A program made the position numbers and the translations under genes. From contig CAZYXB010000004.1 of assembly GCA_964651155.1 (NCBI GenBank), forward strand, positions 46,386 to 110,385: DNA of 64,000 nt, given 5' to 3'. How positions within the stretch are numbered: the stretch's first letter is position 1; each line of letters opens with the position of its first letter. The notes under the pieces were generated by a model that saw only the letters and a program-made list of their open reading frames with translations, had not been told where the DNA came from and searched no databases. Shown here one piece after another: positions 35,469-45,940 of the stretch. This DNA is from an uncultured Acidobacteriota bacterium. Lineage in GTDB: Bacteria; Acidobacteriota; UBA6911.

Positions 35469-35543
<75 letters not shown>

Positions 35544-35787
35544 GTCAAACCCATTGAATCACTACCACTAACAGGAAAGCCCAGAACACCCCCGGCGGTC
35601 CCCGTTTTGGCGTTTTCGGCCCTGTTGCAGCTGTGTTGCAGATTTTCCCCTGCAATAGCTGGTAGGGAGTTTATCCAGTCGTGCCCTTTTTGCGGCTGTT
35701 GATGTCCGTACTGTGTAACTGTGAGCTCAATACTGCTGTGCCCGAGCCATTCTGCAATGAAAGCAATCGGCGTTCCGTTGTTCAGGT

Positions 35788-35813
35788 GGGTTCGATCCCC
35801 GTCTCCCGCTCCA
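35788..35813 (+). repeat. Direct repeat: exact 26-nt copy of the tRNA-Gly 3' end (att-like)
   Basis: gggttcgatccccgtctcccgctcca is identical to tRNA positions 50-75, about 245 bp downstream of the tRNA. Confidence 0.7.
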
Positions 35814-36282: not shown

Positions 36283-36731
36283 AATCGCACACAGATTCTT
36301 CCGAGGATGTCTTGTTTCATTCAAGACTCCCTACATACACCACCCGGAGAGGGGCGAATTCCTGCAACGTAACGTCCCGACGGCCGTTCGTCAACCGGTG
36401 GAGGCGCGGGGAACCCAACGCAGCGGCGTGGCGTTTTTGGGGATCTGCCACTAATTGCACGGATTTATAAGGCGACGCACTCACGTAGAGTTCCGGAGGC
36501 ACAACGCCGTCGTTGGAAGTTACGCCGATCCGGAGTGCCAGAGGCACAATTCCGTGAAAAGTCAATCAGGGTACCACCGACGTCGAGTGCCGGAGGCACG
36601 GTGCAGCTTAGCCCGGGGCGGCGGAGCCCCGGGGGTGGAATAGGAAAAGAGACGAATCCTGAAAGGACGATGCAAATGCACCGCACCGGAGGCGCTTGTT
36701 TTACCGACGATCAAATACCGACTGCCAACCA

Positions 36732-38870: not shown

Positions 38871-39983
38871 ATGCTTTTCAGCGGAAAGAAAGTCATTGTT
38901 GCCGCAGTCGCGGTTACACTCGTGCTGGCGGTCTCAGCCTTTGCGCAGAAACGCCTCATGGATCCGAGGCTGCGCGGCGAAGGTCCGCTCAAGGTGATGA
39001 CGTACAATATGTATGCCGGTACCGAGTATGCCGGAGTCACCGCCAGCGATCCGGCCGTTTTCCTGCAGGCAGTTACGGACATGTTCGCGGAGGCCGAAGC
39101 CAACGACCCGGCGGGCCGCGCGCTCGCGATCGCACGCCAGATTTCGATCACGCGGCCGCACCTTGTGAGCCTGCAGGAAGTGGCCACATGGAGCAGGGGG
39201 CCGACGAGGGACGACCTCACATTGGAGTACGATTATTTGGAACTGCTGCTCGACGCGCTGGATGCGCTGGGCGAGGATTACATGCCGGTGGCTTCGCTCA
39301 CTACCTGGGATACCATTGTACCCAGTTCGACGGGCCTGTATGTCCGCAACACTTGGCGCGAGGCCATCCTGGCACGCGCCGACCTGGATCCCAGGCATTT
39401 TTCATTCACGAATATCCAGGCAGCCCCGTGGTCGGCCGGCGCCACCATCAGCTTTCCGCTACCGGCCCTGAACGGATCTTCGGACTGTCCGGTGCCGCTA
39501 GAGGCTTCCGGCGCCTGCATGATGCCTTTCCCGCGCGGCTGGGTTTCAGTGGATGTGACGTACCGGAATAAGCAGTTCCGCTTCATCGACGCGCACCTGG
39601 AGAGCAAGAGCGCCTCGAAGAACTTCCTCGAGAGCCTCGAATTGCTGAACGGTCCGGCCCTTACCGCGCTGCCCGTCATCGTCGCGGGGGATCTGAACTG
39701 CGATCTCGGCAATCCCGAAAGCTCGAAATACCAAACATGCATGAATTTCCTGAACACCGGGTTCCGTGATGCATGGAACGAAGCCAACCCGGCAGAGCCG
39801 GGCTATACCAAGCACCTTCCGATAATGACGGAGCGGAGTGATTACGTCATGATCCGGGATCCGATCTTCTCCCAGGCTGCATTCCTGGTCGGGGAGGAGC
39901 CGGAAGATAGGACGCCGTCGGGCCTATGGCCCGGCGACCACTGTGGTGTCGTTGCGCGGTTGCAGTTTTCATTTGAGGATTAG
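38871..39983 (+). CDS. Secreted endonuclease/exonuclease/phosphatase (EEP) family protein
   Basis: Signal peptide KKVIVAAVAVTLVLAVSAFA. EEP motifs VMTYNMY...LQEV...GDLNCDL. Confidence 0.7.
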   Translation: MLFSGKKVIVAAVAVTLVLAVSAFAQKRLMDPRLRGEGPLKVMTYNMYAGTEYAGVTASDPAVFLQAVTDMFAEAEANDPAGRALAIARQISITRPHLVSLQEVATWSRGPTRDDLTLEYDYLELLLDALDALGEDYMPVASLTTWDTIVPSSTGLYVRNTWREAILARADLDPRHFSFTNIQAAPWSAGATISFPLPALNGSSDCPVPLEASGACMMPFPRGWVSVDVTYRNKQFRFIDAHLESKSASKNFLESLELLNGPALTALPVIVAGDLNCDLGNPESSKYQTCMNFLNTGFRDAWNEANPAEPGYTKHLPIMTERSDYVMIRDPIFSQAAFLVGEEPEDRTPSGLWPGDHCGVVARLQFSFED

Positions 39984-42473: not shown

Positions 42474-42523
42474 GCCAATTTCCCAAACTGGACGTCGCAG
42501 GTTTGATCCCCGTCTCCGCTCCC
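42474..42523 (+). repeat. Degenerate direct copy of the tRNA-Gly 3' half (anticodon stem-loop to 3' end). attR-like
   Basis: gccaatttcccaaactggacgtcgcaggtttgatccccgtctccgctccc vs tRNA gccagcttcccaagctggacgtcgcgggttcgatccccgtctcccgctcca (about 43/50). Confidence 0.6.
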
Positions 42524-42673: not shown

Positions 42674-43203
42674 CTATTCCAGTCGCTTGAATTTGTAGCT
42701 GACAGCCATACCGCTGCCGGACATATTCCCTTTCGCCGAAGGCGCCGCGTCCATTCCCGGCATGACCAGTTTGTCGTATTGCGGGGTCAGTATGAGGGTG
42801 TCGTTCCCCTCCATTCTACAGCCGAAAGTCATGGAGGCTCCTCCTCCGCCCATCATAGATACCAGATGATGGACTACCAGGGTGGAGCCATCGTATTCAT
42901 AGGTTCCGGCGTCCGCCATAAAACTCCGGGTGCTTCCGTACGCGCCTCCACTGGAAGTGGAACCCTCCTTCTGCGATAGATCGCGGATCGAGCTGTAGTG
43001 CCGGTCCATGATATAGAGCATGAAAGCCTTGGGAGTTGTGGTGTCCTTGGTATCCCCGCTGCCTATATCCATTTCAGTAATGGTCCATACCCCTTTGATG
43101 GACGGCTTGGCTTTTTCACCGGATGCTTTCTGTTCTGCGCTGAAGGCGGTCGAAAGCGACACCATCGATACAAGGCAAAAAATCAGCAAAGAGCGTTTCA
43201 TAC
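42674..43203 (-). CDS. Secreted lipocalin-like / small beta-barrel protein
   Basis: Signal peptide MKRSLLIFCLVSMVSLSTAFSA. The mature domain KGVWTITEMDIGSG... is lipocalin-like, a weak call. Confidence 0.45.
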
Positions 43204-43284
43204 AATTATCCCCTTTGAATATTTTGAAAAGTGGTTTCGAATTACGGCGGAAATATTGTACCACTTCGGCGCAGCCCTGCTTCT

Positions 43285-44310
43285 CTAAAAGATTCCTTCA
43301 CGGACCTGATTGCCCTTTGTTTCTCCGGCGATTCCCACGACATTGTCGGGATCGGCGGATTCGTTTTCCGGCAACGGCCATTCCATTGGAACCTTCGCCA
43401 AAAGGGCCACACTCTTCAGCCCGTTCAATTTGGCGGACCCATCGACGGCCGGAATGTCCGAATAATATTCGAACCACGGCAGACCGGCCGCCGTGTACGT
43501 TTTCGCCGTGGGCAGCACCGTGGGGGGGGCGTCGCCTGTGATCGATCTCCATGCCGTGGAGTTTGCGATATGGACAAAACATCGGCTCCGGTGATTTTGA
43601 TCCCAGTCGTAAACGCCGAAAGGATCGTCGTAAATCTTCTGCCGCATACGCCCGCCCGGTGCGAGACCCATGGCAAATAATACATCAAAATGATCTTCCT
43701 TCACGACTAGTGGCGCTGACTGCCGGGCATCGCGTTTCTGTTTTGGGAACCGTCGTTCAAAAACTTCTCGTTTCATCGGGTAAACGACGATCTGTATGCC
43801 GCCATATTCGCCCTTGCCCGTCAGTTGTTCCTCGGCGGTATACCCGGCCCCGAGCGGCATCGCGACAAATTGACGGATAATCCCTTCTTCGACACAGTAC
43901 CCGTCCAGCCACGGTTGCACGGGCGAGACAAGATAGTCCTGCCGCGCTGTGTCCAGTTCGTTTGACCAGGATTCCCCGGTCACGGCGTTGATTTTGCCGG
44001 CGCCGATTTTTATCGCGAAGGGATACGATGTGCCGCGGTCCGGAATACCAAAAGTGTCAAAGGACATCCACATCGCCTCCGATTGGTACATCGGCAGGAA
44101 AATGCCCCCACGCTCAACCCACCCGGGCGGAACAGTTTCCCTGAAATCATCGACGACCTTCAGGGGGAAAGAACCCAGCCCGGGGGGCAGGGGATACTTC
44201 CGGTTGTCGTCGGGAATCCGTAGTGTTCTTTGGAAGTCGATACCGAGTACGGCGTCCTGATGGACATCCTTGAATGAAAAAATTAGGGAGTCGTTGTGTA
44301 GTTGGACCAT
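43285..44310 (-). CDS. Hypothetical 341-aa protein, no recognisable domain
   Basis: Good coding potential, lower GC than the core genome. Lies between the XRE regulator and the lipocalin-like gene on the same strand, with 31-nt spacing from the XRE stop. Confidence 0.5.
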   Translation of the reverse strand: MVQLHNDSLIFSFKDVHQDAVLGIDFQRTLRIPDDNRKYPLPPGLGSFPLKVVDDFRETVPPGWVERGGIFLPMYQSEAMWMSFDTFGIPDRGTSYPFAIKIGAGKINAVTGESWSNELDTARQDYLVSPVQPWLDGYCVEEGIIRQFVAMPLGAGYTAEEQLTGKGEYGGIQIVVYPMKREVFERRFPKQKRDARQSAPLVVKEDHFDVLFAMGLAPGGRMRQKIYDDPFGVYDWDQNHRSRCFVHIANSTAWRSITGDAPPTVLPTAKTYTAAGLPWFEYYSDIPAVDGSAKLNGLKSVALLAKVPMEWPLPENESADPDNVVGIAGETKGNQVREGIF

Positions 44311-44341
44311 GGTCGTACCCCTGAAAATGTAAGTGAATCGG

Positions 44342-44698
44342 CTACCATTTGCCGTCTCGCACCTCGCGCACCAAGCCCTCGATTTGTGTATCCGGAGCCC
44401 GTTTGAGTTCGCGGATCAGTTTCGAAAAAAGCCGCGGACGTTCGCAAATGACCTGCTGCAAATCGCCGGAAACTTTGCCTGCGAGTGCCAGCAAAACATC
44501 GGGATCTTCCCCAAGAACCTCTGCCAGCGCCACAATCTTTGCTTCCGAGGGGGGCCCCTGTTCTCCCCGCTCCACCTTGCTGAGGAATGCCGGTTGGACT
44601 CCGACGCGTGCCGCGACTTTCCGCACGGAGAAGTTCGGATCCACGGCCCGGAGCGATTCGCGTACTTGGCGGACATAGGCTCCAAATTTGGATTGCAT
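44342..44698 (-). CDS. XRE-family helix-turn-helix transcriptional regulator (cI/Cro-like), apparently leaderless
   Basis: MQSKFGAYVRQVRESLRAVDPNFSVRKVAARVGVQPAFLSKVERGEQGPPSEAKIVALAEVL is the classic HTH_XRE. TTGACA-17-TACAGT promoter ends 7 nt before the ATG. Confidence 0.7.
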   Translation of the reverse strand: MQSKFGAYVRQVRESLRAVDPNFSVRKVAARVGVQPAFLSKVERGEQGPPSEAKIVALAEVLGEDPDVLLALAGKVSGDLQQVICERPRLFSKLIRELKRAPDTQIEGLVREVRDGKW

Positions 44699-44700
44699 GT

Positions 44701-44727
44701 CGTATACTGTATAGTATACAGTATACG
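44701..44727. promoter_or_regulatory. 27-bp near-perfect palindrome cgtatactgtata-g-tatacagtatacg. Candidate operator overlapping divergent promoters
   Basis: Arms GTATACTGTATA/TATACAGTATAC, one central mismatch. Sits between the XRE start (44698) and the divergent ORF start (44778). Confidence 0.5.
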
Positions 44728-44777
44728 TTGTCAAGTGGATATTCCAATGCTCGGATACATAACATAGGCGGTCGGGA

Positions 44778-45224
44778 ATGAAAAGATATGATGAGCGATT
44801 ACAGGCTGCGGTGGAAAGAATCTGTCTGCAGAGCGGCGAAACAGCCATGATCGATCAAGGCTATTATGAATATTTCGCGACTATCTCAGAGAAAGATATG
44901 CGGGGTGTCATCTGTCGCATCATAATCGCCACATCGGATGTAATAAACAAGAATATACTAACCGGGAAATGGAACGACGAGGATATGTACACCTTTGTCC
45001 AGATGCTGCTGGAACTATTATCTGAAGGGAAGATCTTTTTCACCGAAGACGACGGGAAAATGAGTTTCCAAAAGCCAATCGGGCATCCGGCCGTTGGAGA
45101 TACATACAATACAATCAGGGAAAAGATCGAGAACAGCAGACCCTTGATCCGAAGGGTTTTTATGGATATCGTACGATTACAGAATACGAGACGACCCGAG
45201 CAGATTCGACTATTCGATCCCTAG
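44778..45224 (+). CDS. Hypothetical 148-aa soluble protein, no recognisable domain
   Basis: Divergent from the XRE regulator. GC about 50%. MKRYDERLQAAVERICLQSGETAMIDQGYYEYF... Confidence 0.45.
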   Translation: MKRYDERLQAAVERICLQSGETAMIDQGYYEYFATISEKDMRGVICRIIIATSDVINKNILTGKWNDEDMYTFVQMLLELLSEGKIFFTEDDGKMSFQKPIGHPAVGDTYNTIREKIENSRPLIRRVFMDIVRLQNTRRPEQIRLFDP

Positions 45225-45262
45225 GAAGAACGAGCAAGAAACAACTGCTGGAGGGGATACCC

Positions 45263-45940
45263 ATGGAAGCAGAGAGAAGCGCCTGCAGACTTGGTTTCTG
45301 GTCGGCCATACTGGTATCGGTATCTAGCGTCTCCTACGTCTTGGGCCAGATCGCAGAGTGGTTCGGGCTCATGGGGTCCGGCGGCGGACCGGAGAACGAC
45401 AGCACCTGGTACGGCCTCGTGGTACTCCTTGTCCCTTCCCTGTTTCTCGGGATTTCCTTTGTGATCATGATGGGATGCGTCCACAGCCAGGCACCCGCGG
45501 GGAAGAGAATCTGGAGTCAAACCGGGCTCGCATTCGCGACGATGTACGGCACGTTGATCTGCATGAACTACTTTGTCCAGCTCACGCTCGTTGCTCCAGC
45601 CCTTTACCGCGGCGATGTCAGCGACAGCGTCCGACCCTTTCTTTTCAACGTCTTCAATTCCTTTACCTATTCGGTAGACCTCCTCGGATACAGCTTCATG
45701 AGTTTGTCCACGCTTTTCGCGGCTTTCGTATTCATGGGGCCGGGATTGCAGAAGACGGTCCGGTGGTTTCTCATAGCGAACGGCCTCATCGTGCCCTGTA
45801 TCGCCCTTCAGACCTTCTACCATCCTTTGATATGGGGCGCTTCTTTGTGGGCGGTGACAATGCCGGGTGCCTCCATCTCTCTTGCCGTATTCTTCGGGAA
45901 GAAGCTCCGGGGGCACCTGGGCGATGAATCACTTCTGTAG
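45263..45940 (+). CDS. Hypothetical integral membrane protein (about 6 TM)
   Basis: Hydrophobic segments AILVSVSSVSYVLGQI, GLVVLLVPSLFLGISFVIMMG and LAFATMYGTLICMNYFVQLTLVAPAL. Follows the 148-aa ORF by 38 nt. Confidence 0.5.
   Translation: MEAERSACRLGFWSAILVSVSSVSYVLGQIAEWFGLMGSGGGPENDSTWYGLVVLLVPSLFLGISFVIMMGCVHSQAPAGKRIWSQTGLAFATMYGTLICMNYFVQLTLVAPALYRGDVSDSVRPFLFNVFNSFTYSVDLLGYSFMSLSTLFAAFVFMGPGLQKTVRWFLIANGLIVPCIALQTFYHPLIWGASLWAVTMPGASISLAVFFGKKLRGHLGDESLL

Follow-up and report, generated by a model that had tools for sequence, protein, structure and literature searches.

The window analysed here is a 64,000-nt stretch of contig CAZYXB010000004.1 (positions 46,386 to 110,385) from an uncultured Acidobacteriota bacterium. 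On its minus strand it encodes an XRE-family repressor and, directly downstream, a 341-aa protein that we call P341. From comparison across genomes, the conserved functional unit of the locus is predicted to be these two genes, spanning 43285-44734, and not a set of five genes; XRE and P341 very probably make up an autoregulated operon. The best explanation overall, which we put at a probability of about 45%, is that the pair would act as a self-contained autoregulated switch with P341 replacing the protease partner of related repressors. An autoregulated XRE repressor with a partner gene is known in kind; the P341 partner is not an M78 peptidase, a kinase or a known toxin, and neither the partner family nor the tail motif nor the operator is described in Pfam, NCBIfam, PADLOC, PHROGs, PDB or the literature searched. 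An earlier note on this DNA had proposed an undescribed regulated module, a claim that is borne out for the XRE–P341 pair.

Conservation of the XRE–P341 pair

A scan of one genome per species recovered at least 594 P341 loci, and conservation of the pair was assessed in the best 80 of these (L007-L086), which come from Planctomycetota, Gemmatimonadota, Verrucomicrobiota, Acidobacteriota, Myxococcota, Krumholzibacteriota and other phyla. In 79 of the 80 loci, the gene immediately preceding P341, in the same orientation, encodes an XRE orthologue (55-72% identical), and the repressor is thereby tied to the 341-aa gene as the earlier note had supposed. In the window, the 31-nt gap after the XRE stop codon holds a Shine-Dalgarno sequence (Table 1) and no minus-strand terminator-like site; the only two such sites on this strand are located inside the XRE coding sequence. 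All-against-all clustering of open reading frames (ORFs) over the 80 loci revealed no other conserved neighbour of XRE or P341, the next most shared gene family being present in only 5 loci.

The neighbours considered, the longest ORF per flank of the pair in the genome loci (67 upstream, 64 downstream), are ordinary and varied, and among them are Ser/Thr kinases, sulfatases, TonB receptors, aconitase, tRNA synthetases, Hsp70, RNase PH and one integrase. Upstream neighbours stand in both orientations about equally often and are mutually unrelated; when PADLOC was run on this upstream set only, just four generic Ser/Thr kinases matched. The defence or abortive-infection reading put forward earlier gains nothing from this, P341 having no PADLOC match and the neighbours being housekeeping genes, and the two-gene core recurs across clades without defence-island association.

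The pair is also carried by megaplasmids of Euzebya pacifica and Bosea and by 14 of the 31 viral-collection contigs with P341, and in one contig it stands beside an integrase and a DUF3987 gene. XRE is found paired, too, with 451-aa and 1162-aa variants of the P341 domain. P341 relatives without XRE occur in phage Rctr197k, in 17 of the 31 viral loci, at L036 and L246, in a Poribacteria locus, in a variant with an inserted MshEN domain, and in giant viruses and eukaryotes; since phages and some bacteria have P341 alone, the protein is not obligately toxic. Synteny among the phage loci lacking XRE was rejected as meaningful, for it only reflects closely related phages. Pairwise identity of P341 is 61-64.5% within a phylum versus about 60% between phyla, the corresponding values for XRE being 69-71% and about 66%. 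The vertical signal in these comparisons is weak, and strong purifying selection acts on both genes.

Promoter, operator and start of the repressor gene

The XRE gene is preceded on the minus strand by TTGACA-17-TACAGT (44734..44706), which agrees with 10 of 12 consensus positions and has a 17-nt spacer in the consensus scan. The palindrome that the earlier note had placed over this promoter is there: at 44701-44727, it takes up the spacer and extends over the -10 box. The length of 27 bp given for it stands, while the description as near-perfect does not, because the sequence reads CGTATACTGTATA-g-TATACAGTATACG, an exact 13+1+13 dyad. The operator is composed of 7-nt GTRTAST units and hence contains dyads in more than one register. 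No further copy with up to 3 mismatches was detected in the window, and shuffled sequences likewise gave 0 matches. The consensus scan showed no plus-strand promoter facing the operator. Binding of the XRE protein to the palindrome is predicted.

Because the XRE ATG at 44698 lies only 7 nt past the -10 box and 2 nt past the palindrome, too near for a ribosome-binding leader to fit, the XRE–P341 transcript of the window is predicted to be leaderless. In public gene calls of the contig, XRE begins with the TTG of the -35 box (130 aa) or with ATG 44848 (168 aa), and both of these longer starts (region 44699-44848, minus strand) read through the operator. The 118-aa leaderless reading, already proposed in the earlier note, appears to be the correct one, since the 77 orthologues are mostly 117-118 aa long and have the common start M-x-x-x-F-G-x-Y-x-R.

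To follow the operator across genomes, a 25-nt degenerate pattern was used, GT[GA]TA[GC]TGT[GAT]TA[GC]TA[TC]A[TC]A[GC]TA[CT]AC. With up to 6 substitutions it is present in 76 of 80 XRE upstream regions (75 loci and the window), with the aligned consensus cTTGACAtcGTGTAGTGTGTAGTATATACTACACACATG and the same placement relative to the -35 box and the start codon; the window palindrome is the positional homologue of this consensus. An operator over the repressor's own promoter in 76 of 80 upstream regions argues strongly for the autoregulation that had been suspected from the window. At a stricter cut-off of up to 4 substitutions, 76 sites were found on scanning both strands of the fetched 1.7 Mb, exactly one per locus and nowhere else; the 80 genome loci account for 73. 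A search with each locus's own dyad over 810 kb yielded no second operator site, the shuffled control giving 2, and a local regulon with extra operator sites is ruled out in the window, the 1.7 Mb of fetched sequence and the 810 kb of flanks.

In 58 of the 76 loci the operator ends 20 nt or less before the codon of the conserved Phe5, so that most loci would be leaderless; a subset in Gemmatimonadota has a short AGGAGG leader in place of the leaderless start. In 45 of the 76 orthologous loci the operator is preceded, at a distance of 12 nt or less, by TTGACA with at most 1 mismatch. Distant pairs (30-55% XRE identity), such as L089, L090 and those of the Euzebya and Bosea plasmids (Table 1), keep a palindrome in the same position with a different sequence, which is the outcome expected of a co-evolving repressor and operator. 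The literature search found the operator sequence in no paper.

An SOS/LexA box was considered and rejected: the window operator does contain CTGT-N7-ACAG, but the family consensus is GTGTAGTATATACTACAC and most members lack CTGT...ACAG. The consensus spacing of the E. coli LexA box is N8, as against N7 in the window operator.

The repressor and its relatives

The XRE protein matches Pfam HTH_31 (1.5e-11) and HTH_3 (1.7e-8), and profile comparison of its helix-turn-helix (HTH) part, residues 5-70, retrieved SinR (1.5e-8, the closest), ClgR, a phage immunity repressor, P22 C2 and DdrO. In the PADLOC check that the earlier note had called for, only XRE gave a match, the best being capH at 6e-7, which is generic. 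The C-terminal 48 residues had no match to any solved structure in the profile search. The protein has the Cro/C1-type helix-turn-helix of XRE/Cro-CI autorepressors, and the locus has the dyad operator over the repressor's own promoter.

An XRE profile scan of viral contigs identified 62 relatives that do not adjoin P341 (L184-L245), 32-52% identical, with alignments mostly extending to residue 96 or further. Their C-termini are Lys/Glu-rich and lack a DGxW tail. The next gene encodes a 230-256-aa protein with HExGH in 42 of the 62, and all five such neighbours that were tested matched Pfam Peptidase_M78 (ImmA/IrrE). These relatives are a coherent prophage-like repressor set, and because the nearest viral relatives precede Peptidase_M78 genes, the window XRE is assigned, by sequence, to the ImmR/DdrO/CapH repressor group. 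Beside the window repressor, the P341 gene occupies the exact position that the M78 protease gene has beside these nearest relatives.

Repressors of the ImmR/DdrO/CapH group are inactivated by an adjacently encoded protease (PMC12828697, PMC10904395, PMC10233336, bioRxiv 10.1101/2022.04.27.489752), IrrE-DdrO and CapP-CapH being XRE-plus-partner derepression modules (PMC12828697, bioRxiv 10.1101/2022.04.27.489752). The XRE–P341 pair resembles ImmR/ImmA, DdrO/IrrE(PprI) and CapH/CapP in having an XRE protein that is their sequence relative, as the capH and DdrO matches indicate, and a putatively autoregulated promoter with the partner predicted to be co-transcribed directly downstream, in the same gene order and spacing as in the viral M78 pairs. 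Unlike in those systems, P341 has no HExxH, M78 match or PDB structural relative, the invariant ...VRDGxW tail of the repressor is new and missing from the M78-paired relatives, and neither adjacent regulated cargo nor a regulon with the same operator was found in the 80 loci, the 1.7 Mb, the 810 kb of flanks or the window.

The P341 family

P341 had been taken for an orphan, which it is not: a search of 5.8 billion protein clusters returned at least 8000 relatives, of which the best 120 are full-length and 59-70% identical and derive from Planctomycetota, Thermodesulfobacteriota, Eisenbacteria and others. Representatives of 50%-identity clusters, scanned exhaustively with HMMER, gave 3671 clusters with E≤1e-3 and 863 with E≤1e-30. 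No match to P341 was found in Pfam, NCBIfam, PADLOC or PHROGs, and a 63-sequence profile gave 0 matches at E≤10 against PDB sequences. The family-wide conserved residues are R28, T29, R31, P33, E78, K106, Q132, W134, D136, Q147, F148, E160, Q162, Q173, Q224, W236, Y272 and W279.

A first AlphaFold2 model built from 25 close homologues was poor, with a mean predicted local distance difference test score (pLDDT) of 61.7. The model from the 63-sequence alignment, which includes 50%-cluster representatives, reached a pLDDT of 89.1 and a predicted template modelling score of 0.88. Beta structure predominates in it; residues 195-210 and 330-341 are disordered, and residues 324-326, immediately ahead of the tail, make up a strand that lies on the protein body. 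Foldseek comparison of the model, a check proposed in the earlier note, returned no structural relative in PDB (best E 0.31); against BFVD it retrieved uncharacterised giant-virus proteins, among them one from Harvfovirus (1e-21) and a Hyperionvirus 'ubiquitin-like domain-containing protein' (1e-9). On the basis of the model, the fold is predicted to be new.

Several assignments were discarded. The label 'integral membrane protein' of a Thermogutta homologue does not suit P341, which has no hydrophobic segment (maximum Kyte-Doolittle 19-residue score 0.91). The names given to the proteins in source records were otherwise uninformative. A Cys-His protease is contradicted by the distribution of the candidate residues, Cys139 being present in only 32 and His247 in 49 of 63 diverse members, and a disguised M78 peptidase by the lack of HExxH and of any M78 match.

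Relatives of P341 are present in phages, giant viruses and eukaryotes, and some are fused to other domains (recorded as P0268, P0226, P0231, P0124, P0187, P0223 and P0172). The euglenid transcript P0268 (Entosiphon) encodes an N-terminal ubiquitin, a ubiquitin-like domain inside the variable loop of P341 and a C-terminal RING; in a bacterial variant, an MshEN domain is inserted in the same loop (195-210). The ligand of the MshEN domain is cyclic di-GMP. Other fusions involve an N-terminal UBA, a C-terminal VWA, Sel1 repeats and DUF932. Because relatives are wired into eukaryotic ubiquitin signalling and carry ligand-binding insertions in bacteria, we regard P341 as more likely an effector that recognises proteins or peptides than an enzyme of metabolism.

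A C-terminal tail common to XRE and P341

Every one of the 77 XRE orthologues terminates in ...P[DE]HAVLRLVREVRDGxW, and Gly116 and Trp118 are invariant even in pairs that are 32-50% identical. Most P341 proteins end in ...QVREGxF, and distant, phage and eukaryote-type P341 in ...V[RT][DN]GxW, with or without an adjacent XRE. The motif [DE]G.[WF]-COOH terminates 77/77 XRE and 57/80 P341 proteins versus 1 among the 3002 remaining ORFs of these loci. The XRE tail is unchanged where the partner is the 451-aa or 1162-aa variant, neither of which has such a tail; this suggests that the receptor of the XRE tail is either the P341 domain or a common third party.

The specificity of the motif bears on the idea that XRE is an ordinary local regulator, sensing a small molecule and controlling an enzyme or binding protein in, for example, a stress or nutrient response, with the tails being incidental. 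Such a role would agree with the housekeeping character of the flanking genes, with strong purifying selection and with the pair seeming to be single-copy, because each locus comes from a different species genome. Nevertheless, we consider it quite improbable: the frequencies above are too specific for chance, the 118-aa XRE has no ligand-binding domain and its last 48 residues match nothing, no metabolic neighbours are conserved, and the P341 fusions are to ubiquitin, UBA, RING, VWA and MshEN, not to pathway enzymes.

A C-terminal sequence element common to a repressor and an adjacently encoded protein is also found in SinR/SinI of Bacillus subtilis, where it mediates antagonism through heteromer formation. 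SinI is a 57-aa peptide whose gene lies upstream, and the shared element is a helical hook domain; P341, unlike SinI, is a 341-aa globular protein encoded downstream, and the shared element is a short terminal motif.

In the XRE-type antitoxin HipB, a universally conserved C-terminal Trp docks in a HipA pocket and lies in a Lon-dependent degron (PMC3376134, PMC4150777). The pair might by analogy be a HipBA-type type II toxin–antitoxin or abortive-infection system, in which P341 would be a growth-arresting effector and a labile XRE would both repress the operon and neutralise P341 through its tail, until loss of XRE by proteolysis, phage attack or stress released P341. Gene order (small XRE first, large partner second), sizes, tight spacing and a palindromic operator overlapping the promoter are all as in type II systems. 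The basic XRE (isoelectric point 9.5) has an acidic partner (5.2), and its invariant terminal Trp on a flexible tail is reminiscent of HipB. The module is self-contained and found at random chromosomal sites, on megaplasmids, in viral contigs and beside an integrase, and its atypical G+C content at third codon positions (GC3) in this genome suggests acquisition. Still, we judge this reading unlikely. P341 stands alone in several lineages, as listed above; identities between phyla are very high for a conflict system, and XRE and P341 are far more conserved than is usual for HipBA-like modules; P341 is no HipA kinase, and neither the libraries nor the structure searches related it to a known toxin fold or family; and no defence-island context surrounds the pair loci. 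Unlike the defence systems of PADLOC-DB 2.0, the locus yields only the generic capH match of XRE, with none for P341, among housekeeping neighbours.

Proposed mechanism

In the switch that we favour, XRE would bind the dyad over the promoter spacer and the -10 box and so silence its own leaderless XRE–P341 transcript, as suggested by the anatomy of the locus and its conservation. P341 would be the sole regulated output, produced only on displacement of XRE. It would serve as the repressor's partner, in place of the ImmA/IrrE-type protease of the closest repressor relatives, and would engage the invariant ...VRDGxW tail of XRE; the majority of P341 proteins themselves end in a motif of this kind. 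Some signal, with P341 as its sensor, might then free the promoter and lead to a self-amplifying burst of P341, a partner switch operating without an M78 peptidase. For the tail-mediated coupling of XRE and P341 the chances appear even. That P341 responds to a signal as an anti-repressor, and by accumulating is itself the output, falls slightly short of this, and we prefer it to a toxin restrained by XRE, which seems unlikely.

Several observations weigh against this proposal. The last 12 residues of P341, which include its tail, are disordered in the monomer model, and the protein has no recognisable catalytic motif, with no HExxH and with neither Cys139 nor His247 conserved across the family. 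In contrast to ImmR/ImmA and CapH/CapP, the pair has neither regulated cargo beside it nor a second operator, which leaves the benefit of derepressing P341 alone unexplained. The P341 tail could serve self-association or turnover, and the XRE tail could be a protease degron and not an element for docking P341. Finally, the identities within and between phyla fit old horizontal spread or a conservation plateau and are uninformative on function.

Neighbouring genes and genomic setting

The earlier note had read the region as one switch over two divergent gene sets, that is, a five-gene defence or toxin-immunity island with the operator controlling P341 and P175 on one side and P148 and P225 on the other (Table 1). 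The operator is indeed only 51 nt from the P148 start codon, and the block is low in G+C, as the note had stated, and adjoins the tRNA-Gly att copies. However, relatives of P175, P148 and P225, and of two ORFs further left, were found in none of the 80 XRE/P341 loci; no plus-strand promoter was seen at the operator; P148 is a singleton; P225 belongs to a highly conserved stand-alone family with native-like GC3; and the tRNA-bounded island ends at 42517, left of the block. This reading is already largely refuted, and we hold it to be very improbable; P175, P148 and P225 are best regarded as bystanders to XRE–P341.

Table 1. Predicted features of the XRE–P341 locus and its surroundings, and palindromes of distant pairs. 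Positions are those of the window.
Feature	Position	Strand	Description
P175	42674-43201	minus	ORF, no family match
P341	43285-44310	minus	341 aa, soluble, acidic, mostly beta; loop 195-210 insertion-tolerant; tail ...QVREGIF
Shine-Dalgarno AGGGG of P341 gene	44318-44322	minus	read from sequence; inside the 31-nt gap after the XRE stop
XRE-family repressor	44342-44698	minus	118 aa; HTH residues 5-70, helical C-terminal part, tail ...VREVRDGxW-COOH
Operator palindrome (putative)	44701-44727	none	CGTATACTGTATAgTATACAGTATACG; perfect 13+1+13, 27 bp; read from sequence
-10 box TACAGT	44706-44711	minus	within operator, 7 nt 5' of XRE start codon; consensus scan and sequence
-35 box TTGACA of XRE–P341 operon promoter	44729-44734	minus	consensus scan
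P148	44778-45224	plus	ORF, no family match
P225	45263-45940	plus	ORF, no family match
Palindrome of distant pair L089	just before start codon		GTGTTTCCTGATAGGAAACAC
Palindrome of distant pair L090	just before start codon		TTACTGTTGCTTCACAGTAA
Palindrome of Euzebya plasmid pair	just before start codon		AGTGTTCAGTGAACAGT
Palindrome of Bosea plasmid pair	just before start codon		GTTCATCACTTGGTGAAC

The four ORFs that the note had listed besides the repressor gene exist, and P175, P148 and P225, like P341, matched nothing in Pfam, NCBIfam, PADLOC or PHROGs. The description of the 175-aa protein as lipocalin-like found no backing, since neither Pfam nor NCBIfam gave a match at E≤1. For P175, metagenome contigs contain 57 relatives (42-73% identical) in addition to its own 100% copy, and none of them lies beside XRE/P341 except on this organism's own contig. 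Its N-terminus is signal-peptide-like, and an extended -10-like element, TGGTACAAT, in the 83-nt gap after P341 suggests a promoter of its own. The only match to P148 among the 5.8 billion clusters is P148 itself; its G+C, 0.447, is the lowest in the block, and it is either a lineage-specific gene or not a gene. P225 belongs to a family of about 218-aa membrane proteins (1980 matches, up to 88% identical) from Acidobacteria, Krumholzibacteria and Syntrophales metagenome-assembled genomes, and several hydrophobic, presumably membrane, segments are predicted in it. In the four contexts examined P225 stands by itself among genes unrelated to it and XRE/P341 is absent, with a histidine-kinase/response-regulator hybrid beside one and an ars/thioredoxin/DsbD cluster before the others.

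The G+C content at 40-46 kb is 0.52-0.55 versus 0.61 overall. GC3 is 0.62-0.65 for XRE, P341 and P175 and 0.54 for P148, compared with 0.73-0.78 for the flanking core genes; P225, at 0.73, is at the core-genome level. The values for XRE, P341 and P175, being below those of the core genes, suggest that the pair was acquired in this genome.

The tRNA-Gly(CCC) gene lies at 35469-35543, and its 3' half (35493-35536) recurs at 35763-35806, with the last 22 nt identical, and at 42474-42517, with 89% identity; the latter is the degenerate copy that had been noted just left of the block. Such repeats are what the integration of one or two elements at the tRNA leaves behind, here over about 35.5-42.5 kb. 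The contents of the tRNA-bounded island include a TPR/Trans_reg_C protein, an Exo_endo_phos protein and an Rfam Acido-Lenti-1 small RNA motif (36586-36633, minus strand; 42.7 bits, gathering score 37). This motif and the 88% match of P225 to an Acidobacteria metagenome-assembled genome hint at an acidobacterial or related source for the DNA. A gene of the endonuclease/exonuclease/phosphatase family stands a few kb from the pair in the window (38871-39983, plus strand), another on the Euzebya plasmid (L118, 3408-4163, minus strand), divergent and about 450 nt upstream, and one more is among the 64 downstream neighbours; this recurrence is probably a coincidence.

Biological significance

The pair occurs in at least 594 species genomes from many phyla, over which promoter and operator are conserved, yet it has no entry in Pfam, NCBIfam, PADLOC or PHROGs. 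Its annotation now gains a corrected XRE start codon, the removal of the membrane label from P341 and the recognition of the window neighbours as bystanders. The anatomy is defined for testing, with a 27-bp operator, a leaderless promoter, a 118-aa repressor with a terminal Trp and a soluble, confidently modelled P341.

More broadly, P341 might represent a new fold and family across bacteria, phages, giant viruses and eukaryotes that recognises C-terminal ...DGxW, including its own; bacterial P341 would have captured an ImmR-like repressor by giving it that tail, and the eukaryotic domain would act in ubiquitin signalling through its ubiquitin, UBA and RING fusions. We offer this only as a tentative and rather doubtful extension. 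If it is true, a new kind of protease-free genetic switch would exist in hundreds of species, and the bacterial cassette would be a tractable entry to an unstudied conserved mechanism of signalling or protein turnover. Should P341 be a new anti-repressor or effector, the ImmR/ImmA-DdrO/IrrE-CapH/CapP paradigm would gain a partner that is not an M78 metallopeptidase, together with a handle on a domain that is combined with ubiquitin-system domains in eukaryotes and giant viruses.

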